A stretch of DNA of 20,891 nucleotides from an uncultured Flavobacteriales bacterium (GTDB taxonomy: Bacteria; Bacteroidota; Bacteroidia; Flavobacteriales_G; Salibacteraceae), in contig CAJWSQ010000021.1 in the NCBI GenBank assembly GCA_913045895.1, positions 1-20,891 on the forward strand, given 5' to 3'. The translations under genes were made by a program, and so were the position numbers. The notes below the pieces were generated by a model. It had not been told where the DNA came from. It saw nothing but the letters and a program-made list of their open reading frames with translations, and did not search any database. This document shows positions 2,620 through 15,002 of the stretch, piece after piece. The first letter of the stretch is position 1; each line of letters begins with the position of its first letter.

Positions 2620-4800
2620 TTATTCAGTGATTCCTAGATCACTTGGTTTTGCTCCTCCTAAACCAGCATTATTAGCTAGATATAGAATTTGTTGCAATAC
2701 ACTTTGTTTAGATGGGTCGTTGGTTTGAGTCATCATTTTCGACACCAAAGCCGCGATTGATAGATTCTTTAAATCTTCAGAATCAATCTTAGATTCAGCA
2801 AAAATTGAACGTAATTGATCTACCAACGTAGCTCCGTTCGGATCATCCAAAAGTTGGGTTTTAACCTTGGTAAAGATTTCGCTGTTATTTACAGTTCTAT
2901 CAAGAGTTTTACCAGTAGTAATTGCCCCAACAATTTTATCGAAGAATACAGATTCACCACCAACGATATCAATCTTAGCCGATTCAAGCGCACTTGATAA
3001 CACTTCTGCTTGAGCATCAGCAATTGATTTTTGGATGTTGATTTGAGCCAATTCAACTTCTTTCTCTTTCTCCAATCTAAGTTTAAATTCTTCGTGTTCT
3101 TTACCAACACCGTCCAGTTTCTTCATCGCTTCAGCTTTACGGTCGATACCTTCTGCCTCTGCATTGAATAACTCTCTGTTTACGTTAGCCTCTGCCAATC
3201 CTTTTTCTTTATCAGCTTCTGCTTTTCTCAGAATCACCTCAGCCTCTGCTAAACCTTTCGATTTTTCAACCTCTGCTCTAGCATTACCAATTCTCAATTC
3301 AGCTTCTGCTTCAGCATGAGATTTAGCCTCAATACCTTTAGCTTCTGCTAATGCCTGATCTTCAAGAACTGAAGCTTCAGCTTCCCCTTCTTTCTCTCTC
3401 GCTTCGGCTTTAGCCTGCATTACTTTAGCCTCAGCTAAACCAGATGCCGCAAATTTAGAAGCCTCGGCATCAGCCAATACTTTAATTGCTTCTGCACGTT
3501 GAATAGACGATTGCTGTTCAGCATCAGCATCAATAATTTTTTGTTTAGCCACAAATTCAGCAGCTTGTTTAGCAGCTTCTGCTTTTTTGATTTCTTGAAC
3601 CAATGCAGACTCTGCTTCTTGTTCAGCTTTAGTGAGAGCCACCTTCTTAGTACGATCGGCTTCAGCGTATGCTCGAGTATCTTTGATTCTTTCTTCTTCG
3701 TCAACTACAGTCTTTTCGATAGCAACACGTTCACGAATAACTTCTTGAATATTTTTCTTCTCAGTTTCAACAGATTTTTCTTTTTCAATCTGAGCCAGTG
3801 TAACTATTTTCTCACGCTCTGTAGCTTCAAGCGCTCTATCTTTTTCTACTCTTTCAGTTTCAATTGCTTCTGTACGCTCTTTATTTTTAGCAGCAACAAT
3901 AACCTGACGGAGCTTGTTCTCTTCAGCCACCATCACTTCTTCTTCAGTAGTAATGCGGGCTCTCTCAGATTTTAATCTTTCTTCTTGTTGCACTCGAAGA
4001 ATCTCTGCTCCTTCTCGAGCTTTTACGCTTTCAACCTCACGTCTTTGCTTTTCTTCACTTTCAGCCAATTGGCGCTCTAACTGCAAGATTGCTTCACGAG
4101 CCTCAACATCTTGTTGCTTGATTGTTTTTTCTTTATCACGCTGAATAAAGTTGGCTTTAACAGCCTCATTAGATGTGATTTCAGTAATTTTCTTGATACC
4201 TTCAGCATCTAAAATATTATTTGGATCAAGCGCACTTAAACGTGTTTGCTCTAAGAAATCGATTGCTGCATCATCCAACACATAACCGTTTAAGTCTGTA
4301 CCAATGATGTTGATGATTTCTTTTCTGAACTCATCCCTTTGATTGTATAAATCTACAAAGTCGAATTTCTTACCTACAGTTTTTAATGCTTCAGAAAACT
4401 TAGCATCAAACAACAATCTTAAAGACTCTTTGTCTGAAGCACGGCTACAACCTACCGATTGAGCCACTTTCTTAACATCTTCAACCATTTCATTTACACG
4501 AACAAAGAAGGCCACTTTAATATCAGCACGCATGTTGTCTTTACACACCAGGCCATCTTTACCTTCTCGTTCAATAGTTATGGTACTTAACGAGATATCC
4601 ATGATCTCTAAGCGGTGCAGTACCGGCACCACAATCATACCATTGAATGATACTTTAATACCACCAACTCCAGTACGAACCAAAGCTTGACCTTGAGACG
4701 CTTTGTGGTAAAAGCGGGCAACCATTGCCAGGATCCCAAGTACTAATACAACCCCAACAATAATGCTGGTGATCAGTGAATTTTGAAATAACGATTCCAT
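2620..4800 (-). CDS. Flotillin-like SPFH/band-7 family membrane protein (726 aa). It has an N-terminal transmembrane anchor, an SPFH domain and a ~400-aa Ala/Glu/Lys-rich coiled coil (EA-repeat region).
   Basis: The N-terminus (MESLFQNSLITSIIVGVVLVLGILAMVARFY) is a hydrophobic helix. It is followed by an SPFH-like core (GGIKVSFNGMIVVPVLHRLEIMDISL...DNMRADIKVAFFVRV...). A long AEAK/AEAE-rich coiled coil follows, as is typical of bacterial flotillins (YqiK/FloT-like). It lies next to an NfeD-like gene. Confidence 0.8.
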   Translation of the reverse strand: MESLFQNSLITSIIVGVVLVLGILAMVARFYHKASQGQALVRTGVGGIKVSFNGMIVVPVLHRLEIMDISLSTITIEREGKDGLVCKDNMRADIKVAFFVRVNEMVEDVKKVAQSVGCSRASDKESLRLLFDAKFSEALKTVGKKFDFVDLYNQRDEFRKEIINIIGTDLNGYVLDDAAIDFLEQTRLSALDPNNILDAEGIKKITEITSNEAVKANFIQRDKEKTIKQQDVEAREAILQLERQLAESEEKQRREVESVKAREGAEILRVQQEERLKSERARITTEEEVMVAEENKLRQVIVAAKNKERTEAIETERVEKDRALEATEREKIVTLAQIEKEKSVETEKKNIQEVIRERVAIEKTVVDEEERIKDTRAYAEADRTKKVALTKAEQEAESALVQEIKKAEAAKQAAEFVAKQKIIDADAEQQSSIQRAEAIKVLADAEASKFAASGLAEAKVMQAKAEAREKEGEAEASVLEDQALAEAKGIEAKSHAEAEAELRIGNARAEVEKSKGLAEAEVILRKAEADKEKGLAEANVNRELFNAEAEGIDRKAEAMKKLDGVGKEHEEFKLRLEKEKEVELAQINIQKSIADAQAEVLSSALESAKIDIVGGESVFFDKIVGAITTGKTLDRTVNNSEIFTKVKTQLLDDPNGATLVDQLRSIFAESKIDSEDLKNLSIAALVSKMMTQTNDPSKQSVLQQILYLANNAGLGGAKPSDLGITE

Positions 4801-4825
4801 TTTAGTTAGTTAATTGAGTATTTGA

Positions 4826-5488
4826 TTAATCAATCTGATTGTAGGGCTCTATCAAGTAAACTCCCTCTTCTTCAGAAAGCATTTGAATGAATAACACACG
4901 ATCTCCTTTAGACACTTTAACCCCTTCTCTCGTTTTAATATAAAACCTCAAAAAGGTTCCCATGTAATTAACCTCAGCCTGTCCCTTGCTAACATCATCA
5001 GCATGAAGAGTAACAACTCCCACTTTACCAATGATCTCTTTCTTTTTGCTGTCTTTATCAATATTCCCGAAGAACTTAACAAAAGGCCAAGTGAGAATTT
5101 TAGCTATAAACAAGCAAACAAAAAGTGTGGGTAAAAAAACAGCCAACCCGAGGAAGAAATTATGAATCCCTAAAACCCCATTGATATTGATTGTTATTAA
5201 CCAGAGCGGTATAACGAGAAAGCTCAACCAAATCATTAGCGGAACTTTTCCTAAGTTAAAGAATAGCAACACGTTGTTGATCCAGCTAACTCCAACAGAA
5301 GATGAGTTCACATCCATTTCTGCATCAGCATCAAGATCAATGTCTGCTTCGTAGTCTAAATCAAAATCTAAGAAATCTGTACCCAAAAAACCGAGTATCA
5401 CGATTACCCAATAAAATATGATAAAAACCAGCAAAGCTGTTGGAATTGCATTTGCCCAGTTAAATATGAAGTGTAGGAATTCAGTCAT
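4826..5488 (-). CDS. NfeD-like (YqiJ/YuaF-type) membrane protein. It has multiple transmembrane helices plus a C-terminal OB-fold beta domain and is the partner of the flotillin.
   Basis: The N-terminal two-thirds are hydrophobic helices with an acidic loop (DFDLDYEADIDLDADAEMD). The C-terminal soluble beta-rich segment is IIGKVGVVTLHADDVSKGQAEVNYMGTFLRFYIKTREGVKVSKGDRVLFIQM. It sits immediately upstream (25-bp gap) of the flotillin gene, which is the conserved NfeD-SPFH gene pair. Confidence 0.6.
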   Translation of the reverse strand: MTEFLHFIFNWANAIPTALLVFIIFYWVIVILGFLGTDFLDFDLDYEADIDLDADAEMDVNSSSVGVSWINNVLLFFNLGKVPLMIWLSFLVIPLWLITININGVLGIHNFFLGLAVFLPTLFVCLFIAKILTWPFVKFFGNIDKDSKKKEIIGKVGVVTLHADDVSKGQAEVNYMGTFLRFYIKTREGVKVSKGDRVLFIQMLSEEEGVYLIEPYNQID

Positions 5489-5496
5489 TGTTTTTA

Positions 5497-6228
5497 TTAT
5501 TCCGCATTACCTCCTTCAGGAGTAATACCTAATTTTTTCTTTAGTTCAGCTAATTCATCACCAGCTTTACTCGCACTTGCTCCTTCAAGAGCTTTGTTGA
5601 TTTCATCATCAACAGATCTACTTTCATTAGCAATCTCTCCGTAACTCTCAGCCAAAGCCTCTTCTTGAGCTACTTTTTCTTTCATGCGCTCCAACATTGA
5701 AACAGTACTTGATGAATCAATTTGAGCCATTTGTTTATTGATATTCTTTGTAGCCGAACTCACTTTTACGCGAGCTTTAAGCGTACGAAGCTCATTTTCA
5801 TATTGGCTAATTTGAGATCTCAATCGTTTGATATTTCCATCCATATTTTCAATAGACTCATCAAACTTCACTTTTTCAGATTTAGATCTTTCTAAGTGTT
5901 TCAAGTTTTCCTCTTTCTTAACCAAAGCTTCACTTGCTAAACGATCAGCTTCTTCAGCACTCAACTCACCTTTTTGAGCTTGTTGTAACAAAAGAATTGC
6001 TTTCTGTTCGTAATCTTTTGACTTATCCTCAAACAATTCAATATCATTTCTAGCTCTAATGCTCAGCGCCTTTACTTCGGCTAAAGCATGTAAGGCTTTG
6101 TCTAAATCTTCTTTCAAATCACGGATTCCTTGTTCCGTCATTTTTATAGGATCTTCTAACTTATCGACAGCAGAATTCGCTTCTGCCTTACCTATAGTAA
6201 ATAGTCTTCTTAGAATATTCATAATCAT
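5497..6228 (-). CDS. pspA: PspA/IM30 (phage shock protein A / Vipp1 / LiaH) family protein, 243 aa.
   Basis: The N-terminus (MIMNILRRLFTIGKAEANSAVDKLEDPIKMTEQGIRDLKEDL) matches the canonical PspA start (MGIFSRF...NALLDKAEDPeKM...). It is entirely coiled-coil and about 240 aa. Neighbours are 5-8 bp away, indicating an operon. Confidence 0.85.
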   Translation of the reverse strand: MIMNILRRLFTIGKAEANSAVDKLEDPIKMTEQGIRDLKEDLDKALHALAEVKALSIRARNDIELFEDKSKDYEQKAILLLQQAQKGELSAEEADRLASEALVKKEENLKHLERSKSEKVKFDESIENMDGNIKRLRSQISQYENELRTLKARVKVSSATKNINKQMAQIDSSSTVSMLERMKEKVAQEEALAESYGEIANESRSVDDEINKALEGASASKAGDELAELKKKLGITPEGGNAE

Positions 6229-6233
6229 AGATA

Positions 6234-6629
6234 TTAGTATTTTGAAAATGTGATTAGTTCGTCAGAGTACTCACTCAGTAATAGACTCAATGAATTGATT
6301 GAACCTTCCAATTCATTTTGATCTAAATTTTCTAACTGTAACGTGTCTCTAAATATGACTTTCTTACCCGTTTCATCAAGAGCAAATGCTCCATGTACGA
6401 TGTCACGATTTTTTATCAGGAGGTTTTTAAAAACATCATTGTTTCCTTCTTTCAACTCAAATAGAAATTGCTCCATGATTAGTATTGGCGAGGCACAAAC
6501 CACCACCAGATTTCGTATCCCTACAGACTCATCTTCAACTACAAATACTCCTTCGGATGCATCTTGATGCGAGATATTATACTCTAGGTCTAATAAAAAG
6601 GATTTTACCTTTTCAAAATGATCACTCAT
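6234..6629 (-). CDS. YbjN-like small cytoplasmic protein (putative sensory-transduction regulator / T3SS-chaperone-like fold), 131 aa. It is the first gene of the operon.
   Basis: A 131-aa acidic protein with alternating beta and helix pattern (GVFVVEDESVGIRNLVVVCASPILIMEQFLFELKE...). It lies directly upstream of pspA with a 5-bp gap. YbjN-family genes commonly partner PspA. The assignment is by composition and context only. Confidence 0.35.
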   Translation of the reverse strand: MSDHFEKVKSFLLDLEYNISHQDASEGVFVVEDESVGIRNLVVVCASPILIMEQFLFELKEGNNDVFKNLLIKNRDIVHGAFALDETGKKVIFRDTLQLENLDQNELEGSINSLSLLLSEYSDELITFSKY

Positions 6630-6679
6630 TATGCTTTAAGTTTATGGTTAATAATTACGTAGATTGTGGACTAAGTAAC

Positions 6680-6692
6680 AGCTTACAATATA
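6680..6692. promoter_or_regulatory. First copy of the 13-bp direct repeat AGCTTACAATATA (the second copy is at 6767-6779). It lies in the divergent intergenic region between the ybjN-pspA operon and the XRE-S24 gene and is a candidate operator.
   Basis: Exact 13/13 identity between 6680-6692 and 6767-6779, with the two copies' start positions 87 bp apart (74 bp between them). Confidence 0.4.
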
Positions 6693-6762
6693 GCACTTTT
6701 AGTTAGTGAGGGGAGAACACATTTTCCTTTCTTCTTTTTGCATGTTTGACAATTTAATTAGC

Positions 6763-6797
6763 TTTGAGCTTACAATATACTAAATATTTTAGTTTTG
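6763..6797 (+). promoter_or_regulatory. Candidate Bacteroidetes sigma-A promoter for the XRE-S24 gene. TTTG (-33) is at 6763-6766 and TAGTTTTG (-7, matching TAnnTTTG) at 6790-6797. The 13-bp element AGCTTACAATATA (6767-6779) lies exactly between them, where an operator would sit.
   Basis: There is an exact TAnnTTTG match 30 bp upstream of the ATG at 6828. A TTTG lies 23 nt upstream of it. The repeat element occupies the spacer. Confidence 0.45.
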
Positions 6798-6827
6798 CTA
6801 ATATTATTAGTAATTATTTTTTGAGAA

Positions 6828-7601
6828 ATGTCAAAAATCGGAAATAACATACGCAAGATAAGAAGCGTCAAAAACCTTAATCAGAGCGACTTTGCCGACT
6901 TATTCGAACTAAAAAGAGCAAGTATTGGAGCTTATGAAGAAGGTAGAGCTGAACCAAAAATCAACACGGTTATTGAAATAGCTAATTATTTTGGCATAAG
7001 CACAGATGATTTGCTTACAAAAGAGCTTTCCGTTAATGATTTATATCGGTTTGACATATTCAGGGAAGATTTAGCTAACGACACCAAACACAACCTGACT
7101 CCCTCTACTGTACCTGTTGACTTAGTACAGATTCCATATATATCAACCAATATTCGGAAGCAGTATTTAAAAGAAAGAAAACTCTCTGAAGTTAAGGATC
7201 AGATCACACTACCTATGAATAAGGGATTCAATTACATTGCTATTGAAATCACAGACAACTCCATGTTTTATAATGAATCAGGAATAAACACCAATGATAT
7301 ATTAATAGGTATTAAACCTGAAAAGCTATCTCCTTCAAATGTTCAAGTTGGTAAGGTTTACATTTTTGAAACAGATCAAGACATCCTCATTCGAGAGGTA
7401 AATCAGAAGAACTTATCATCTCTTGAACTCACACCTTTCAACCCCAATTACTATGCAACCTCTATTCCAGCGAAAGAAATAAAAGCCATTTGGCAACTAG
7501 AAAAGCTAATATCTAATAATATTAGCAATAGATCGGATTTAACGAAACAATTAGAAAACCTTGAGAGCGAAATCAGATTACTAAAACGTAACCTACAGTA
7601 A
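6828..7601 (+). CDS. XRE-family helix-turn-helix plus C-terminal S24 (LexA/CI-type) peptidase domain repressor, 257 aa, with an extra C-terminal coiled-coil tail.
   Basis: The N-terminal HTH_3 signature is IRKIRSVKNLNQSDFADLFELKRASIGAYEEGRAEPKINTVIEIANYFGISTDDLL. The S24 signature is IEITDNSMFYNESGINTNDILIGI (compare LexA GDSM...GI..GD, with the Ser nucleophile in DNSM), followed by a basic K in IREVNQKN. The heptad-like tail is KQLENLESEIRLLKRNLQ. Confidence 0.75.
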   Translation: MSKIGNNIRKIRSVKNLNQSDFADLFELKRASIGAYEEGRAEPKINTVIEIANYFGISTDDLLTKELSVNDLYRFDIFREDLANDTKHNLTPSTVPVDLVQIPYISTNIRKQYLKERKLSEVKDQITLPMNKGFNYIAIEITDNSMFYNESGINTNDILIGIKPEKLSPSNVQVGKVYIFETDQDILIREVNQKNLSSLELTPFNPNYYATSIPAKEIKAIWQLEKLISNNISNRSDLTKQLENLESEIRLLKRNLQ

Positions 7602-7603
7602 AT

Positions 7604-8296
7604 ATGGCTGATAAAATTAGTAGCCTTGTAAATGAGATAAATTCCTACTTATCAGACCGAGTATTATCTCGTCAAGAAAAAAGAGATTTAAAATCTATCA
7701 TTCAATCTATCTCATTGAATGAACATGATAAAACAGTTTTCTTATCAAAAGTTAGAGATTTACTTTTTGAAAATAAGTGGAACGCTTCGAGTGAACAACA
7801 AATTGAATGGTTCTATGAAATCTCTAAGTTGATTATAGCTACAGAAACAAATACTAACGAACACAACTCAAGTGCACGATTTAGCCCAGGAACTTCGTGT
7901 AGAGAAGCCATTTGTAATGCTATTCGATTCGCTAACAAAACCATAAGAATATGTGTTTTCACAATTAGTGATGATGATATCACAGAAGAAATAATCCGTG
8001 CACACAGATTGGGTAAAGACGTTAAAATAATAACTGACAACGATAAATCTTTTGATTTAGGATCTGACATTGAAGAAATGGAAAGAGCAGGCATTCCTGT
8101 AACTATGGATAATACTAGCGCTCACATGCATCATAAATTTGCGCTATTTGATAACAAAAAGTTGATTACAGGAAGTTACAACTGGACAAGATCGGCAGCA
8201 TCTCACAACCATGAAAATATAATTCTTACTCAAGACAAAACATTGGTTGAGGCGTTCATCCACGAGTTTAACACACTATGGAAAGAGTTGAATTAA
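7604..8296 (+). CDS. Phospholipase D-family single-HKD-domain protein (Nuc-like endonuclease/PLD nuclease superfamily), 230 aa, with a ~90-aa N-terminal extension of unknown function.
   Basis: A perfect HKD motif, HMHHKFALFDNKKLITGSYNWT (HxKxxxxD-x6-GSxN). The upstream beta-alpha segment (RICVFTISDDDITEEIIRAHRLGKDVKIITD) is typical of PLDc_2. Its start lies 3 bp after the stop of the XRE-S24 gene, indicating translational coupling. Confidence 0.8.
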   Translation: MADKISSLVNEINSYLSDRVLSRQEKRDLKSIIQSISLNEHDKTVFLSKVRDLLFENKWNASSEQQIEWFYEISKLIIATETNTNEHNSSARFSPGTSCREAICNAIRFANKTIRICVFTISDDDITEEIIRAHRLGKDVKIITDNDKSFDLGSDIEEMERAGIPVTMDNTSAHMHHKFALFDNKKLITGSYNWTRSAASHNHENIILTQDKTLVEAFIHEFNTLWKELN

Positions 8297-8347: not shown

Positions 8348-10420
8348 ATGAAGTTTTTATTGAATACCCTATGCTTTTTACTCTGCATACAGCTTTGCTA
8401 TGCTCAACAAGATTTTTCTGATAAAACATACTTTCTAATTGATTCACTCAACCATTTTGAACTCAGTGGAGATGACAGCATACTTGTATTATCTAAAATA
8501 GAAAGCTATCACCAAGCAACTGAAGACACAAATAGACTCGCCATATTAGTAGAACTGGTAGAAGAATGCTGGAACGATGATGTATGGCCTCGGTATAATT
8601 CAGTGGTTTTATCGCAGGCAACGGATGCTTTAAATAAGATTGATAACCAAAAACTCCGCAACAAATACTTGCATTATCAGGGTGTAGCCTACGCCAATCA
8701 AGGTTACTTACACGATATTCAAAGTGATTTTGATATTGCTGAACAACACTATCTAAAAGCCTTAAAAGCATTTGAAGAAAGTGATGACGAGAAAGGCCAA
8801 GGCAAAATGCTTTACGCTATTGCACTCATTAATGAGGAACGAGGACGGGTACAAGTAGCCATTGATTATTTCAACAAATCACTCCGCCTAGCTGAGGCAA
8901 GTGGCGACTCCACTGGTTTGACTCATTTGTCTATGAGTTTGGGAGATATCCACTCAAGCTTGAGCAATAAAGAGGAAGCAATGGATCACTACAAACGTGC
9001 TTTACAGTTAGCTAAAGGCACTGGTGATAAACGCCTTGAAGGGTTTGCATCTACCACTTTAGCAACCATGTATTTATATCAGGAAGATTATGAACAAGCT
9101 CGCGAATTGAGTCTAAAAGGCATTCAACTTTTAGATGAAGCAAAAGCAGGAGCTGACAAAATAAACGGGTTGGATGTATTGGGTAGAATAGCTGCAAAAC
9201 AAGGTCAACTTGATTCTGCCGAGATGTACTTTACCGAAATCATTAGGTTGGCTGAAAATGCTAATCGACCACAAGATTTAGTACAAGGACTTTACTCACT
9301 TGCTCAAAATGATCTGAAGCGAGGTGATTTTACTAAAGCTGAAAAAAATGCAAAGGAAGCTTATCGTATCACTAAAGAGTTGGACTTAAAATATAAACTG
9401 AGCGATGCCGCTGGTTTACTGGCAGAGATTTACACGCAAACCAATAAGTATAAAGAAGCCAATAAATACTTGTTGGAGTTTAATAATCTGAAAGATACAC
9501 TCCGCAATGAAAACCTTAAAAACCAAGCTTTAAAGCAATCTATAGAATACGAGTACGAAAAACAAAAAGCTGTTGATGAAGCTGAGCATGAAGCCCAATT
9601 AGCAATTGCCGCTGCACGTGAATCCAGACAAAACATCATCATTTGGGCTGTTGCTGCAATCTTAGTTTTAATCAGCATTGCATTGGTGTTGAATTTCTTC
9701 CGTTTACGTACCATTCGAAAACAAAAAGAAGAACTGGATGAAGCATATCATCAACTGGAACTGAGTAAAAACGATAAAATTCTAGCCTCGAACTTGAAGG
9801 CACTTCAGGCGCAGATGAATCCACACTTTATTTTCAATGCGCTGAATTCCATCCAAACATTGGTGTTGCATGGAGACGTAGATAGCTCTTACGATTACAT
9901 CAACAAATTTGCGATGTTAATCAGAGAAACGCTCAATGCTTCTGAGCAAGAATTTATTCCGATTGAAAAAGAGATTGAATCGCTTGAAACGTATTTGAAT
10001 TTAGAAAAGCTAAGATTCAGAGAAGATTTCAATTATCAAATAAAAGCTCCAAATGAAGTTCCAGATAAGTACATCCCTCCTATGCTAATTCAACCGTTTA
10101 TTGAAAATGCACTGAAACATGGCCTTTTCCACAAAGAAACCGATCGTGAGCTGGATGTAAAAATCACTATTTCAGATACACTTACTTGTGTGATTGAAGA
10201 CAACGGAATTGGTAGAAAAGCATCTAAAAAAATCAATCAAAGTAGAAGTGCTAGTCACAAATCATATGCTATTAGCTCTATTAAAAAGCGCTTGGAAATG
10301 ATGCAAGAAAAACTCAAAACAACCATCGGTGTGAATTACGAAGATTTGGAAGAAAATGGCCAAGCTGTTGGAACAAGAGTCACCATCAGAATTCCAATTT
10401 ATGACCGTTCCTCAAATTAA
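8348..10420 (+). CDS. Sensor histidine kinase, LytS/YehU type (His_kinase plus HATPase), with signal peptide, large periplasmic TPR-repeat sensor domain and a single transmembrane helix. 690 aa.
   Basis: Signal peptide MKFLLNTLCFLLCIQLCYAQQ. TPR-like repeats (AIALINEERGRVQVAIDYFNKSLRLAE..., AMDHYKRALQLAK...). Transmembrane helix IIIWAVAAILVLISIALVLNFF. The His_kinase (PF06580-type) motif LKALQAQMNPHFIFNALNSIQ carries the phospho-accepting His. The ATPase-region motifs are PPMLIQPFIENALKHG and IEDNGIG. Confidence 0.85.
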   Translation: MKFLLNTLCFLLCIQLCYAQQDFSDKTYFLIDSLNHFELSGDDSILVLSKIESYHQATEDTNRLAILVELVEECWNDDVWPRYNSVVLSQATDALNKIDNQKLRNKYLHYQGVAYANQGYLHDIQSDFDIAEQHYLKALKAFEESDDEKGQGKMLYAIALINEERGRVQVAIDYFNKSLRLAEASGDSTGLTHLSMSLGDIHSSLSNKEEAMDHYKRALQLAKGTGDKRLEGFASTTLATMYLYQEDYEQARELSLKGIQLLDEAKAGADKINGLDVLGRIAAKQGQLDSAEMYFTEIIRLAENANRPQDLVQGLYSLAQNDLKRGDFTKAEKNAKEAYRITKELDLKYKLSDAAGLLAEIYTQTNKYKEANKYLLEFNNLKDTLRNENLKNQALKQSIEYEYEKQKAVDEAEHEAQLAIAAARESRQNIIIWAVAAILVLISIALVLNFFRLRTIRKQKEELDEAYHQLELSKNDKILASNLKALQAQMNPHFIFNALNSIQTLVLHGDVDSSYDYINKFAMLIRETLNASEQEFIPIEKEIESLETYLNLEKLRFREDFNYQIKAPNEVPDKYIPPMLIQPFIENALKHGLFHKETDRELDVKITISDTLTCVIEDNGIGRKASKKINQSRSASHKSYAISSIKKRLEMMQEKLKTTIGVNYEDLEENGQAVGTRVTIRIPIYDRSSN
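9540..10420 (+). repeat. About 0.88-kb direct repeat (copy 1), which pairs with 11690-12570 (copy 2). It encodes the TM helix plus the entire transmitter half of the two kinases. Nucleotide identity is about 85-90% by eye.
   Basis: The proteins are colinear and almost identical from KQSIEYEYEKQ.. to ..RVTIRIPIYD. The DNA aligns with scattered synonymous changes. Confidence 0.8.
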
Positions 10421-10496
10421 TTGTACGCTGTGTCAAGTAAAATTGAGTAATCGCCTCCTTCCTCTACTTTCGCCCGCATTAAAGCATTGCCAATTC

Positions 10497-12587
10497 ATGA
10501 AGTATCTCTTTAGCATTCTGTGTTTCCTGCTTAGCCTACAATTTTCCTTCGCGCAAAAAGATTTTTCAGACAAAGCCTACTTCTTGGTTGATTCGTTGAA
10601 TTTCATTGAGCTTTCAAAAAACGATTCTCTACTCATTCTTGAAACGGCAAAAAACTACCATGCAGCCAAGCACGATACCACCAAGCTCCAAATCCTTGAA
10701 AATCTGGTGGATGAATGCTGGAATGATGATGTTTGGCCGCGCTACAATCTGTTTATGCGAAATGAAGCCAAAAGACTGATTTCAACCGTTGATTCAGGAA
10801 GCGATGAATGGCGCAGGTATTTGTATTTTCTGGGAAGTGGAACCGGAGGAATCGGCTTCCAATTTGATGTAATTGGTCAAACAGATTCGGCCACTCATTA
10901 CTACCACGAAGCACTGGAGTATTTTATTAAAGGGAATCATACTGAAGGTGAAAGCCTTATTTACGATGCTCTTGCCATGATATATGAATTGAAGGGAGAC
11001 ATGCGTAAGGCGCTTGAATTCTATAACAAGGCTCTACAATTGGCAGAAAAAAATCACGACTCAATCGCAATAGCTAATGCAGCGGTTAGCTTGGGAGATT
11101 TACATGGTGAATTGAAGAATTATCAGCTGAGCCGAGAACTATACTTAGAAGCTATTGAAGCTGCACATGCTACCAATCAAAAACGTGTTGAAGGATTCAC
11201 TTACACCTCATTAGCAACCGACTATGTCGACAGAAATAAAACTGACAGCGCAAAAATCCTGACTAAGATCGGATTGAAAATCTTGGAAGATTCCGGAAAC
11301 GAAAATACCATGAGTAATGGATTTAACATGCTCGGAAATATTGCGCTTTTTGAAAAAAAACTTGACACCGCTCGATACTATTTCAATGAAATGGATCGGA
11401 TTGCCATAGCCAATCATCAGCCCGAGGATATGATTATAGCTCAGAGTAATCTTTACAGAGTTGAAAGAGCTTCTGGGAATTACGCGAAAGCTAAAATCCA
11501 CGCTCTAAACGGATATCGGGTAGCTAAGGCCAACGATTTCCCTGGCCTATTGAGCAGAACTTCTAAAGATTTGGCTCAAATTTACGCCCAACAAAACCAA
11601 AGCGATTCCGCCTATAAATATTTATTGGAATACTCCATTTTGAGTGATAGCATAGTAAACACCGAGCTTAAAAATGAAGCGATCAAACAATCGATAGAAT
11701 ACGAATACGAAAAACAACAGGCAATTGATGAGGCTGAACACGAAGCCGAAATGGCTATTGCTGCTGCACGTGAATCTAGGCAAAACATTATCATTTGGGC
11801 AGTTGCCGCAATCTTAGTTTTAATCAGCATTGCATTGGTGATGAATTTCTTCCGTTTACGCACCATTCGAAAACAAAAAGAAGCGTTAGATGAAGCATAT
11901 CATCAACTGGAATTGAGTAAAAACGATAAGATTCTTGCATCGAATTTAAAGGCACTTCAGGCACAAATGAATCCGCATTTTATTTTCAATGCGTTAAATT
12001 CCATCCAAACATTGGTGTTGCATGGAGATGTAGATAGCTCTTACGATTACATCAATAAATTCGCGATGTTGATCAGAGAAACGCTCAATGCTTCTGAACA
12101 AGAATTTATTCCGATAGAAAAAGAAATTGAATCACTTCAAACGTATTTGAAATTAGAGAAGCTTCGGTTTAGAGATGACTTCAATTATGAGATCAACACG
12201 CCAGATCGCATTCCAAACAAGTACATCCCTCCTATGCTGATTCAGCCATTTATTGAAAACGCACTGAAACATGGTCTTTTCCACAAAGAAACCGATCGTG
12301 AGTTGGATGTAAAAATCACTATTTCAGATACACTTATTTGTGTGATTGAAGATAACGGAATTGGTAGAGAAGCATCTAAAAAAATCAATCAAAGTCGCAA
12401 TGCAGATCACAAATCATACGCCATTGGCTCAATTAAAAAGCGATTGGAAATGATGCAAGAAAAACTCAAAACAACCATCGGTGTGAATTACGAAGACTTG
12501 GAAGAAAATGGTACCGCAGTCGGAACACGAGTTACCATTAGAATTCCGATTTACGACAGTTCGTCAAATAAAACCAACGCTGCGTAA
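10497..12587 (+). CDS. Paralogous TPR-sensor histidine kinase (LytS/His_kinase type), 696 aa. The C-terminal ~295 aa are near-identical to the upstream kinase, and the TPR sensor domain is divergent.
   Basis: The ORF-track entry 10356..12587 overlaps the upstream gene. The in-frame ATG at 10497 gives the start MKYLFSILCFLLSLQFSFAQKDFSDKAYFLVDSLN, homologous to the HK1 start MKFLL...YAQQDFSDKTYFLIDSLN. It has the same TM helix, H-box (MNPHFIFNALNSIQ) and ATPase motifs. Confidence 0.85.
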   Translation: MKYLFSILCFLLSLQFSFAQKDFSDKAYFLVDSLNFIELSKNDSLLILETAKNYHAAKHDTTKLQILENLVDECWNDDVWPRYNLFMRNEAKRLISTVDSGSDEWRRYLYFLGSGTGGIGFQFDVIGQTDSATHYYHEALEYFIKGNHTEGESLIYDALAMIYELKGDMRKALEFYNKALQLAEKNHDSIAIANAAVSLGDLHGELKNYQLSRELYLEAIEAAHATNQKRVEGFTYTSLATDYVDRNKTDSAKILTKIGLKILEDSGNENTMSNGFNMLGNIALFEKKLDTARYYFNEMDRIAIANHQPEDMIIAQSNLYRVERASGNYAKAKIHALNGYRVAKANDFPGLLSRTSKDLAQIYAQQNQSDSAYKYLLEYSILSDSIVNTELKNEAIKQSIEYEYEKQQAIDEAEHEAEMAIAAARESRQNIIIWAVAAILVLISIALVMNFFRLRTIRKQKEALDEAYHQLELSKNDKILASNLKALQAQMNPHFIFNALNSIQTLVLHGDVDSSYDYINKFAMLIRETLNASEQEFIPIEKEIESLQTYLKLEKLRFRDDFNYEINTPDRIPNKYIPPMLIQPFIENALKHGLFHKETDRELDVKITISDTLICVIEDNGIGREASKKINQSRNADHKSYAIGSIKKRLEMMQEKLKTTIGVNYEDLEENGTAVGTRVTIRIPIYDSSSNKTNAA

Positions 12588-12622: not shown

Positions 12623-13363
12623 TTGAACTCCATGAATAAAATACGCGCAATAATAGTTGATGATGAAGCCAGTGCACGCGAAAACTTGGCACTACTCATT
12701 AATCGATTCTGCCCCAATATTGAGGTGCTTTCATCATTCAATTTATTGAAAAAGGCGGTTGATTATTTACAAAATAACGAGGTTGATGTAGTTTTTTTGG
12801 ATGTTGAAATGCCCGAACATGCTGGTTATGAAATCGTGGACTTTTTTGATGAAATCAATTTCGATATCGTGTTTTGTACAGCTTACGATAAGTACGCCAT
12901 CAAGGCATTTGAAATCTCTGCAATTGATTATTTACTGAAACCAGTAGACATCACACGTTTAAAACAGGCCGCTGAGAAACTTCAGGAGAAACAACTTTTC
13001 AGAATCACCCAAGAACAAGTCAATCAAATAAATAGCTCGTTTAGAAACACCATAAAAGTAATGGATCGTGGTGAGCGTGTTCTGCTAAACAAAACAGATA
13101 TTATTGCTATTGAAGGTCAATCTGCTTACAGTAAAATTTACACCCTCGATAAAAACTACACCGCCAGTAAAAACATTGCGCAACTGGAAGAAGAATTGGT
13201 GAATGATTCGTTTTTCTACCGCAGTCAAAAATCGTGGATTGTAAACCTCAACTACATTGACAAAGTCAATAAAACCGATAAAATAATCCATCTCCAACAA
13301 GGTATTGATGCTAAAGTATCGCGCCAAAAGTCAAAAGAATTTTACGAGTTAATCAACTTGTAA
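12623..13363 (+). CDS. LytTR-family response regulator (REC receiver plus LytTR DNA-binding domain), 246 aa.
   Basis: REC signature: KIRAIIVDDEASARENLALLI...VDVVFLDVEMPEHAGYEIV...IVFCTAYDKYAIKAFEISAIDYLLKP. LytTR signature: VLLNKTDIIAIEGQSAYSKIYT...ELVNDSFFYRSQKSWIVNLNYIDKV. It lies 35 bp after the second kinase. Confidence 0.9.
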   Translation: MNSMNKIRAIIVDDEASARENLALLINRFCPNIEVLSSFNLLKKAVDYLQNNEVDVVFLDVEMPEHAGYEIVDFFDEINFDIVFCTAYDKYAIKAFEISAIDYLLKPVDITRLKQAAEKLQEKQLFRITQEQVNQINSSFRNTIKVMDRGERVLLNKTDIIAIEGQSAYSKIYTLDKNYTASKNIAQLEEELVNDSFFYRSQKSWIVNLNYIDKVNKTDKIIHLQQGIDAKVSRQKSKEFYELINL

Positions 13364-13469: not shown

Positions 13470-15002
13470 ATGAAAAGAATTTTACTCAGCCTGGCTTTAG
13501 CAAGTAGCAGTTTATTGAGCATTCAAGCACAATCAACCATTTACGTAAACGATGATGCTACTGGAAACAACGATGGATCTTCTTGGGCAAACGCATACAA
13601 CGATTTAAACGAAGCGTTGACGAACAGCTCTACAAATGATGAAATCTGGATTGCAGAAGGATTTTATACCAGAACATCTTCTACCGAAACTTTTAGAGTT
13701 GATAACGATGTTAGAATTTACGGTGGTTTTAGCGGAAATGAAACGGACAAAGACCAACGAAACATAAAAGCAAATCCTACGGTTGTTAGTGGAGATGTAA
13801 GTTGGAACGACCAAGGTATTGTTAGCAGTTCAAACAGCTATATGCAAGACAATGCCGAGCACGTATTTGAAGTACATAGCACCAACAGAGCCGTTTTTGA
13901 TGGACTTATTATTGAACACGCTTTTAGTACAACAGCAGCAGGTGGTGGAATTTATGTGTACTCTCAATCGATGAACAATTTGGAAATTTCAAACTGTATT
14001 ATCAGAGAGAATGTGTCTGCCAACAGAGCCGGAGTTCTTTTCTATTCAGAAGTTCCAGCGGCATTTTTGATGTACAACAACATTATTGAAAAGAATGTGA
14101 ATGCAGATTTCAACTCTGCTTATACCGTTGAATACAGAATTACTGGAAACAGCCACGTTTATTCAGAAGTACACATGGTGAACAACCTGTTTAACGACAA
14201 CATTACAGAAGCATTTGGTATGGGTGGAACTTGCGGAAGGTTTACCATCACACCTGGAGGTTGCGAGATAGACATTTTCCTAATCAATAACACTTTCATC
14301 AATAATGCTCAAGGCAGCAACATACCTGGCTTATTCGCTTATGAGTCTCATGGAGCTTCAAGCTACTTCTACCCTCACATCAGCAACAATATCTTCTACA
14401 ACAATTATGAAGCAACAGACATCTTTAGAGTTTCAAATGGAAGTGCTAATACATTAGTTATCTTCCCAGAAGATTCTCATAACAATATTCAAGATTTTCC
14501 TGATCTACAAGGGTTAACCAATACGCAAATCATTAACGCTACGCCTTTTGTAGATTTTGTAAATGGAGATTACAGACCAATTGCAGCTTACGAAACTGGT
14601 GGAAATCCAGCCATGTACAGCAATTCAAATTTGATAGATGTATTTGCCGATCAAATGTATCCAGAGTTAGATTTAGCAGGAAATCCAAGATTTAATACTC
14701 AAGGAGAAATAGCTATTGGAGCTAGTCAGGCAGGTCCAAATACTTTGAGTGTAGATGATTTGAAAGAAACTGCCAATTTGAGCATCTTCCCCAATCCAGC
14801 TGACAACATCATTACCATAAAACATGAGTTAACTGGTAACTTAGACATTTCGATTTACACGTTAACTGGAGCTCAGGTTTCTAACACCGTTCTTTCTGAT
14901 AATTTAAACACGATTGATGTTTCTAATTTACCAACTGGCTACTACATTTTGAAAGCTAAATCAGGCAATCAAGAACACGTAGAAAAACTCATTATAAAAT
15001 AA
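13470..15002 (+). CDS. Secreted T9SS cargo protein (510 aa from the ATG). It has a signal peptide, a conserved N-terminal beta-helix-family motif, a parallel beta-helix-like repeat region and a Por-secretion-system C-terminal sorting domain. Paralog 1 of 3.
   Basis: The ORF track starts at a TTG (13437). The ATG at 13470 gives MKRILLSLALASSSLLSIQAQ, a typical signal peptide. The motif IYVNDDATGNNDGSSWANAYNDLNEAL...IWIAEGFYT...YGGFSGNET is shared with the next two genes. The C-terminal domain is FPNPADNIITIKHEL...GYYILKAKSGNQEHVEKLIIK. Confidence 0.8.
   Translation: MKRILLSLALASSSLLSIQAQSTIYVNDDATGNNDGSSWANAYNDLNEALTNSSTNDEIWIAEGFYTRTSSTETFRVDNDVRIYGGFSGNETDKDQRNIKANPTVVSGDVSWNDQGIVSSSNSYMQDNAEHVFEVHSTNRAVFDGLIIEHAFSTTAAGGGIYVYSQSMNNLEISNCIIRENVSANRAGVLFYSEVPAAFLMYNNIIEKNVNADFNSAYTVEYRITGNSHVYSEVHMVNNLFNDNITEAFGMGGTCGRFTITPGGCEIDIFLINNTFINNAQGSNIPGLFAYESHGASSYFYPHISNNIFYNNYEATDIFRVSNGSANTLVIFPEDSHNNIQDFPDLQGLTNTQIINATPFVDFVNGDYRPIAAYETGGNPAMYSNSNLIDVFADQMYPELDLAGNPRFNTQGEIAIGASQAGPNTLSVDDLKETANLSIFPNPADNIITIKHELTGNLDISIYTLTGAQVSNTVLSDNLNTIDVSNLPTGYYILKAKSGNQEHVEKLIIK
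14781..14999 (+). repeat. About 220-bp T9SS C-terminal-domain-coding repeat, copy 1 of 4. The other copies are at 16880-17098, 18948-19166 and 20568-20786.
   Basis: The four 73-aa C-terminal domains are over 75% identical. The DNA of copies 3 and 4 is the most similar. Confidence 0.7.

Follow-up and report, generated by a model that had tools for sequence, protein, structure and literature searches.

The CesT/Tir-PspA-band-7/flotillin-YqiJ operon class was published by Ravi et al. in 2024 (PMC11237479). As described in the sections of PMC11237479 and PMC10948618 consulted here, this class and the P. aeruginosa bac cluster (PA3732-PA3729) have features that recur in the locus studied below, namely a dyad of CesT/YbjN-like protein and PspA, followed by a small and a large membrane protein, and an occasional PLD partner. 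The section of PMC11237479 on CesT/Tir-PspA-band-7 operons does not mention a regulator of the kind reported here. In the literature searched, including the consulted sections of these two papers, no dedicated regulator was reported for the Bacteroidota operons of this class, and no description was found of the regulator, its operator or the leader open reading frame (ORF) analysed below.

The window, that is, the whole stretch of 20,891 nucleotides from an uncultured Flavobacteriales bacterium, contains a minus-strand operon (2620..6629) composed of ybjN/CesT_Tir (6234-6629; CesT_Tir_1, 8.4e-57), pspA (5497-6228; PspA_IM30, 2.2e-40), a gene for a 220-aa protein (4826-5488) and a gene for a 726-aa protein (2620-4800). 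Judged by its sequence, this operon appears to belong to the published class, with a CesT/Tir-like gene followed by pspA. The 220-aa protein gave only a sub-threshold YqiJ_N match (E=0.0039, 17.8 bits against a cutoff of 23). The 726-aa protein had no match to any family in Pfam, NCBIfam, PADLOC or PDB sequence searches and thus differs from the class, as far as the consulted section defines it, in giving no band-7/flotillin sequence match. The labels 'flotillin' and 'nfeD', which the earlier note had attached to this operon, found no confirmation in sequence searches of Pfam, NCBIfam and PDB and rest on analogy with the published operon class. The Pseudomonas bac cluster differs in promoter type and regulator, and it has a sigma54 site.

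Divergently from this operon, a plus-strand regulator gene (6828..7601) encodes a 257-aa protein with an XRE-type helix-turn-helix (HTH), an S24-like domain of LexA/CI fold and a C-terminal helix. It is directly followed by a PLD (PLDc_2) gene (7604..8296). Genome and metagenome collections were scanned with the regulator protein as query, which yielded 89 loci from more than 500 relatives, and look-ups of close homologs added the loci L093, L094, L096 and L097. The nearest named relatives were Crocinitomicaceae and Cryomorphaceae metagenome-assembled genomes. Homologs are also present in cultured relatives, for instance P0060 in Sanyastnella coralliicola and P0049 in Cryomorphaceae bacterium 1068. 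Upstream sequence was available for 83 Bacteroidota-type loci; 74 of these had the divergent ybjN-pspA arrangement, in most cases together with the other two operon genes, whereas PLD stood behind the regulator in a handful of lineages only, indicating that the regulator and the psp operon form a conserved unit in which PLD is a passenger. The earlier note had proposed that one repressor links the PLD nuclease with the membrane-stress operon. The link between the regulator and the psp operon stands, through the palindromes described below instead of the 13-bp repeats that the note had invoked, while the part concerning PLD does not extend beyond a few lineages.

PADLOC recognised no defence system in the window and returned only generic HTH and PLD similarities. 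L096 and L097 (3776-6783) have, after the PLD gene that stands behind the regulator, a gene for a 909-aa AAA_11/AAA_12 (Upf1/DNA2-like) helicase, which suggests that the PLD passenger can belong to a larger nuclease-helicase module. Further downstream in the window are two paralogous ORFs for TPR plus LytS-type histidine kinases (8348-10420 and 10356-12587), a LytTR response regulator (12623-13363) and proteins with T9SS tails, which points to Bacteroidota. As the two kinase ORFs overlap by 65 nt as listed, the second one probably starts further downstream. In L094, the same kinase/LytTR pair is encoded directly behind the regulator.

The regulator was modelled with a pLDDT of 87. Its N-terminus matched Pfam HTH_19 (2.6e-12) and HTH_3 (8.6e-10) as well as HTH structures in the PDB, with helices predicted over residues 3-64, and the Pfam Peptidase_S24 match scored 32.5 bits (cutoff 23.3). 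The top Foldseek matches of the model were LexA, lambda CI and 186 CI, with E-values of about 1e-6 and a TM-score of about 0.7 to LexA C-domains. This repressor had been called cleavable in the earlier note. In both the MAFFT and the hhalign alignments, however, LexA Lys156 was aligned with Arg, and the register of the Ser loop was ambiguous, with S at the catalytic position by MAFFT and F by hhalign. Among the 66 family members, only 2 had Lys and 11 had Ser at the catalytic positions, and the cleavage dipeptides Ala-Gly and Cys-Gly were absent from the entire 257 residues. The Lys-to-Arg replacement, a family keeping neither Ser nor Lys, and the missing dipeptides leave LexA-type self-cleavage unsupported, and the term was abandoned. 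By sequence comparison, the S24-like domain (residues 131-228) is a probable pseudo-protease, and it more likely serves oligomerisation or signal input. An extra C-terminal helix (residues 237-256) was confidently predicted, and in the model it could mediate higher-order oligomerisation.

The intergenic region between ybjN and the regulator gene is 198 bp long with a G+C content of 26%. An exact search of the window found the 13-mer AGCTTACAATATA at 6680-6692 and 6767-6779, both on the plus strand and 87 bp apart, and found no third copy in the 20.9 kb. The distal copy, which reads TATATTGTAAGCT on the minus strand, is located 7 nt past the stop codon of the leader ORF, in the spacer before ybjN, and 51 bp from the ybjN ATG (6629, minus strand). 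The proximal copy occupies the slot from a TAnnTTTG match, TAGCTTTG, to the core of a palindrome designated O1. The earlier note had been correct on both copies, on the TTTG at 6763-6766, on TAGTTTTG at 6790-6797 and on the distances between them. When the intergenic region was dinucleotide-shuffled, an exact 13-mer direct repeat occurred in 23 of 5000 shuffles. When the whole window was shuffled, 33 of 300 shuffles had one or more such repeats within 200 bp, and the real window contains three. Locally, chance alone is therefore an improbable explanation of the repeat, which by itself is nonetheless suggestive rather than decisive. No inverted repeat was found inside the 13-mer, so that dyad symmetry is absent, and the copies are 87 bp apart, as compared to half-sites one helical turn apart.

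The other two exact 13-mer direct repeats lie elsewhere in the window. TCAGCTTCTGCTT, at 3212-3224 and 3299-3311, likewise has a spacing of 87 bp; it is within the gene for the 726-aa protein and probably reflects a 29-residue protein repeat. AAAAGAATTTTAC, at 13333-13345 and 13473-13485 (140 bp apart), extends from the last part of the LytTR gene into the first part of the T9SS-tailed gene behind it.

Comparison with relatives revealed how recent the 13-bp identity appears to be. L093 has 97% protein identity with the window and 96.8% nucleotide identity over 5.2 kb. Their intergenic regions differ at seven positions, three of which (6769, 6770 and 6772) are all in the proximal 13-mer, where L093 reads AGTATGCAATATA; the differences spare the cores of the three palindromes O1, O2 and O3, and 6630-6768 is wholly unchanged. 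Across the 97 loci examined, the 13-mer occurred twice only in contigs of the same strain. These contigs (L090-L092, with identical contigs from TARA Oceans metagenomes) have identical sequences and are thus uninformative on variation. In alignments of the window's clade, the length of the proximal slot between TAGnTTT(G/A) and the O1 core was conserved. Its 5ʹ half had no consensus across 46 loci, and its last 8 nt at the 3ʹ end had the consensus C-W-A-A-n-n-T-A. The distal copy was conserved as G-Y-T-Y-A-C-A-A-(T/G)-A-T-A in L093, L096, L097, L094, L010 and L012.

As the G found at position 6 of the 13-mer in L093 is also present in L001, L094 and L014, the state of the window is derived. 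Clustering of 3 of 6 substitutions within 4 bp has a probability of P=0.009, and extension of the longest direct repeat from 9 to at least 13 by random substitutions has a probability of P=0.00025, from which we infer a single templated patch. The 13-bp identity would then be a recent, strain-specific change of three bases that made the proximal copy match the distal one, possibly through a short conversion that used the distal copy as its source and the common CAATATA as its anchor. Alternatively, selection for identity could account for a non-random patch, leaving the 13-mer some function in the strain of the window. The proposal that the 13-mer is the operator was not borne out, since the 5ʹ half is not conserved, the exact repeat is missing even in the 96.8%-identical L093, and the conserved sites are O1 and O2. 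An exact repeat in a single sequence had marked the right region and the wrong bases, which a close relative and family-wide footprinting corrected.

Two candidate operators lie next to the proximal copy. O1, with the core CTAAATATTTTAG (6780..6792), is conserved in position and sequence across the family, and O2 (CTAATATTATTAG, 6798..6810) is a perfect 6+1+6 palindrome; both are the same in L093. A weak and uncertain O3-like site, ACAATTTAATTAG (6749..6761), matches the core at 6 of its 8 positions, as against 7 in five relatives, and the right arm of the site overlaps TAGCTTTG. The centres of O1 and O2, at about -42 to -43 and at -24 from the regulator ATG, are fixed in the window's clade. 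Of 72 non-redundant homologous intergenic regions, 56 contained CWAA-N5-TTWG, where shuffles predict 3.0 (maximum 8), and 39 contained GCWAA-N5-TTWGC, where they predict 0.2; because the compared loci share ancestry, these shuffle statistics, and those for the leaders below, overstate independence. Pairs of sites 18-22 bp apart were present in 46 of 76 regions and a perfect single site in a further 23, which together make 69 of 76. The symmetric position matrix reads T-(G/A)-C-W-A-A-N5-T-T-W-G-(C/T)-A. Its half-site centres are 10 bp apart (one helical turn), which suits a dimeric HTH protein. Three loci without ybjN likewise have the palindrome in front of the regulator gene, with which it travels, indicating that it belongs to the regulator. 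In a clade with short intergenic regions, there was a single palindrome with a perfect leftward -7 box 19-20 bp away. Conserved, symmetric and position-locked to the regulator gene, O1 and O2 show the traits expected of operators as far as sequence can tell. The autoregulation claimed in the earlier note is very likely on account of these promoter-region sites, although the site is not the 13-mer.

Beyond O1 and O2, the sole other exact copy of CTAA-N5-TTAG in the 20.9 kb is an intragenic palindrome, CTAATAATATTAG (7513..7525; with flanks TCTAATAATATTAGC, 7512-7526), in the regulator coding sequence at the codons S-N-N-I-S and 91 bp before the PLD ATG. It was nearly invariant in nucleotides across regulators of only 48-62% identity, with PLD present or absent. 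It could be an intragenic operator or the result of a conserved peptide plus codon usage. Specificity of this palindrome for PLD-bearing loci was considered and rejected, as L012 and L094 carry it without PLD. A group of paralogs (L038, L045, L047, L050 and L056) has only the HTH domain in common with the regulator (about 60% identity over 80 residues) and neighbours a gene for a 605-aa secreted protein instead of ybjN. The palindrome is absent from this group, which presumably uses a different operator.

All promoters discussed here were assigned by position. Promoters of F. johnsoniae have the box TAHHTTTG, in which the two middle positions almost never carry G, and their -33 element is weak (PMC6847099). 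The -7 box that the earlier note had assigned to the regulator, TAGTTTTG (6790..6797, plus strand), ends 30 bp before the ATG at 6828, and the G at its third position comes from the O1 arm TTAG. The TTTG at 6763-6766 is the tail of the second TAnnTTTG match, TAGCTTTG (6759..6766, plus strand), which also has G at an H position and is separated from TAGTTTTG by a 23-bp spacer. Both perfect TAnnTTTG matches in the window thus carry a disfavoured G that comes from TTAG operator arms. Among 37 relatives, TAnnTTT(G/A) was found at the TAGCTTTG offset in 17 and a perfect box at the TAGTTTTG position in just 4. Family-wide, G-bearing boxes clustered at these two offsets, and perfect H-compliant TAHHTTTG boxes clustered 11-15 nt before the regulator ATG in 13 relatives. 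With conservation in only 4 of 37 and a G where F. johnsoniae promoters almost never have one, TAGTTTTG was given up as the -7 box of the regulator. The candidate is now TATTTTTT (6815..6822, plus strand), a -7-like box with 5 of 6 positions that is equivalent in position to the perfect boxes of relatives. If it is used, O2 would lie in the promoter spacer and the regulator mRNA would be nearly leaderless.

A degenerate leftward -7-like box of 8 nt, TATATTGT (6772..6779, minus strand), directly adjoins O1 and has 4 of the 6 invariant positions of TAHHTTTG. In other clades, the corresponding 8 nt are perfect leftward -7 boxes, for example TATATTTG and TACATTTG, and the distance from the box to the leader ATG is conserved among relatives. 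The 3ʹ half of the proximal 13-mer (TATATTG on the minus strand) therefore seems to fill the slot of a leftward -7 element. No minus-strand box with at least 5 of 6 positions was found in the intergenic region of the window. In the alignment, the distal copy coincides with TAT(A/C)TTG, an element conserved in the clade that keeps its nucleotides both where it lies within the leader ORF and where it follows that ORF; it may be a second promoter or an RNA element.

Between the two 13-mer copies is a short minus-strand ORF, MQKEERKMCSPLTN (6699..6743; ATG 6743-6741, TAA 6701-6699), which ends in SPLTN and has no Pro-Pro. In 23 of 45 long intergenic regions, a short minus-strand ORF with Pro-Pro was present, against a shuffle mean of 0.66 (maximum 3) and a single case on the plus strand, and Pro-Pro-stop endings were found in 12 of 45 regions against a shuffle mean of 0.04. 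CCNCCN was in frame within Pro-Pro short ORFs in 29 of 36 occurrences. Close relatives differ in the wobble positions of the Pro codons, and each of the three stop codons is used. Examples are MKNTKRKPP* and MVIRKQRKPP*, and leader homologs were located in L010-L012, L014, L025, L029, L037, L057, L061, L066, L067, L073, L082, L085, L094, L096 and L097. At the level of the family, a short ORF with Pro-Pro at or near its stop has the sequence characteristics of a proline-dependent leader peptide, and by alignment the window's leader is a homolog of the Pro-Pro(-stop) leaders of relatives that has lost its Pro-Pro. This leader was not found described in the literature searched. A distance of 30-36 nt separates the leader ATG from the palindrome core closest to it, which fits a leftward start beside O1. 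The conserved CATG and the G-rich (GGAGG) block between the 13-mer copies are accounted for by the minus-strand ATG and the proline codons of the leader.

We found no conserved RNA structure on either strand of the G-rich block (6693-6747), and an Rfam search of 6560-6900 returned one spurious sub-threshold match only. We also considered and rejected an attenuator hairpin in the stretch from the leader to ybjN, with a mean z of -0.37 and only 3 of 23 values below -1.64. As a conserved RNA structure after the leader is absent, such an attenuator is unsupported.

The reading that we consider probable is that 6630-6827 is a shared control region in which the regulator binds O1 and O2, not the 13-mers, and represses both divergent units. 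Other readings were weighed against it. The two 13-mer copies could be tandem leftward core promoters of the ybjN operon, of which P1 abuts O1 and includes the leader in its transcript, and P2, about 50 nt before ybjN, bypasses the leader. In favour of this, TATATTG is the minus-strand reading of both copies, perfect leftward TAHHTTTG boxes occur in relatives both beside O1 and 22-53 nt before the ybjN ATG, and the distal element keeps its nucleotides inside or after the leader ORF. Nevertheless, both boxes of the window are one T short of TTTG and match only 4 of the 6 invariant positions, the distal box has no -33-like TTG upstream, the distal boxes of other clades are at different distances, which makes their homology unclear, and the window has too few promoters for the -7 grammar of this organism to be learned. 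We regard tandem promoters as rather doubtful on this balance. Another reading takes the palindromes as promoter elements only, that is, as back-to-back -33-like TTWG elements of divergent promoters, or as sites of another protein. In the short-intergenic clade, 19-20 bp separate the left arm from the leftward -7 box, as would be expected of a -33 element, and TTTG arms are common. However, the fixed N5 and the symmetric flanks (G/A-C ... G-C/T) exceed a TTTG element, F. johnsoniae promoters have a weak -33 element (PMC6847099) and the arms in the window's clade are TTAG. In addition, the sites accompany the regulator gene in contexts without ybjN, and an exact copy lies within the regulator coding sequence, so this reading is unlikely.

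The model of the earlier note, in which the 13-mers are direct-repeat operators of the XRE-S24 protein, one in its own -33/-7 spacer and one facing ybjN, draws on the local improbability of the repeat (23 of 5000 shuffles), on its placement in the shared control region and on the non-random three-base patch, which selection for a second site could explain. We now consider it very improbable. The repeat is missing from L093 and every other relative, and the 13-mer offers neither a consensus in the 5ʹ half of the slot nor dyad symmetry, with copies 87 bp apart. The highly conserved HTH co-occurs with the symmetric palindrome in 69 of 76 loci, and the TAGTTTTG box on which the model relies is poorly conserved and carries a disfavoured G. 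LytTR regulators recognise direct repeats of about 9 bp separated by about 12 bp. The 13-mers might thus be sites of another factor such as the LytTR response regulator at 12623-13363, whose module with TPR-histidine kinases stands behind the regulator in the window and in L094. The spacing of 87 bp is far from about 12 bp, the repeat is not conserved in L094 or L093 and the kinase/LytTR neighbourhood is rare among the loci, which makes this assignment extremely unlikely.

In the preferred reading of a shared control region with O1 and O2 as operators, the two divergent units would be the regulator gene, with PLD riding behind it, and the CesT/YbjN-PspA membrane-stress operon. Regulator dimers would most likely bind O1 (6780-6792) and O2 (6798-6810), and may also bind the weak O3 and the intragenic site. 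We infer that O1 and O2 are flanked by two core promoters, a rightward one just before the regulator ATG and a leftward one that abuts O1, so that occupancy of the sites would repress both. The leftward transcript would carry the leader ORF (6743-6699) first and then ybjN. Some observations count against this reading: the spacing of O1 and O2 is not constant among relatives (18 to 22 bp), the leftward box of the window is poor (4 of 6), and its leader has no Pro-Pro.

Going further, it is tentatively possible that the Bacteroidota CesT/YbjN-PspA operon is under an undescribed two-layer device, a pseudo-protease repressor with shared operators and a Pro-Pro-stop leader, of which the window would have kept layer one intact and let layer two decay. 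In layer one, the dead S24 domain of the LexA/CI-fold repressor would sense a signal or bind a partner, in place of self-cleavage. Pro-Pro and termination after Pro are slow steps of translation. In layer two, slow termination at the Pro-Pro-stop of the leader would tune the expression of the operon.

The short ORF upstream of ybjN resembles regulatory leader peptides with a C-terminal proline, such as TnaC, Pro-Pro-stop upstream ORFs of the CMV gp48 uORF2 type and EF-P-dependent polyproline pauses. In common with these, it is a short ORF in front of the gene, and in relatives it conserves nothing but Pro-Pro(-Pro) at or near the stop, although stalling is putative here. Unlike those systems, there is no conserved terminator or hairpin after the leader, and the copy in the window has no Pro-Pro. 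If functional, the Pro-Pro-stop leader would be a new example of proline-dependent translational control on an envelope-stress system.

The regulator itself is comparable to lambda CI, phage 186 CI and LexA in combining an N-terminal HTH with a C-terminal oligomerisation domain of S24 fold, and, as in those systems, paired palindromes about two helical turns apart overlap core promoters, which are putative here. As the regulator gene adjoins its own candidate operators, it is probably autoregulated. It differs from them in its extra C-terminal helix and in the absence of the Ser-Lys dyad and the Ala-Gly site, the last two of which make RecA-type self-cleavage unlikely. The partner is also different, being a chromosomal membrane-stress operon and not lytic or SOS genes.

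Known Psp regulators are PspF in Proteobacteria, ClgR in Actinobacteria and LiaRS in Firmicutes. The regulator described here, a probable repressor, differs from them in being neither a sigma54 enhancer-binding protein nor a two-component system. It is like them in being a dedicated regulator encoded beside pspA, and, as in pspF-pspABC according to the consulted sections of PMC11237479, it is divergent from the psp genes with a common promoter region. The conserved divergent pairing and the defined palindromes thus provide a concrete, testable candidate for both the regulator and its operator.
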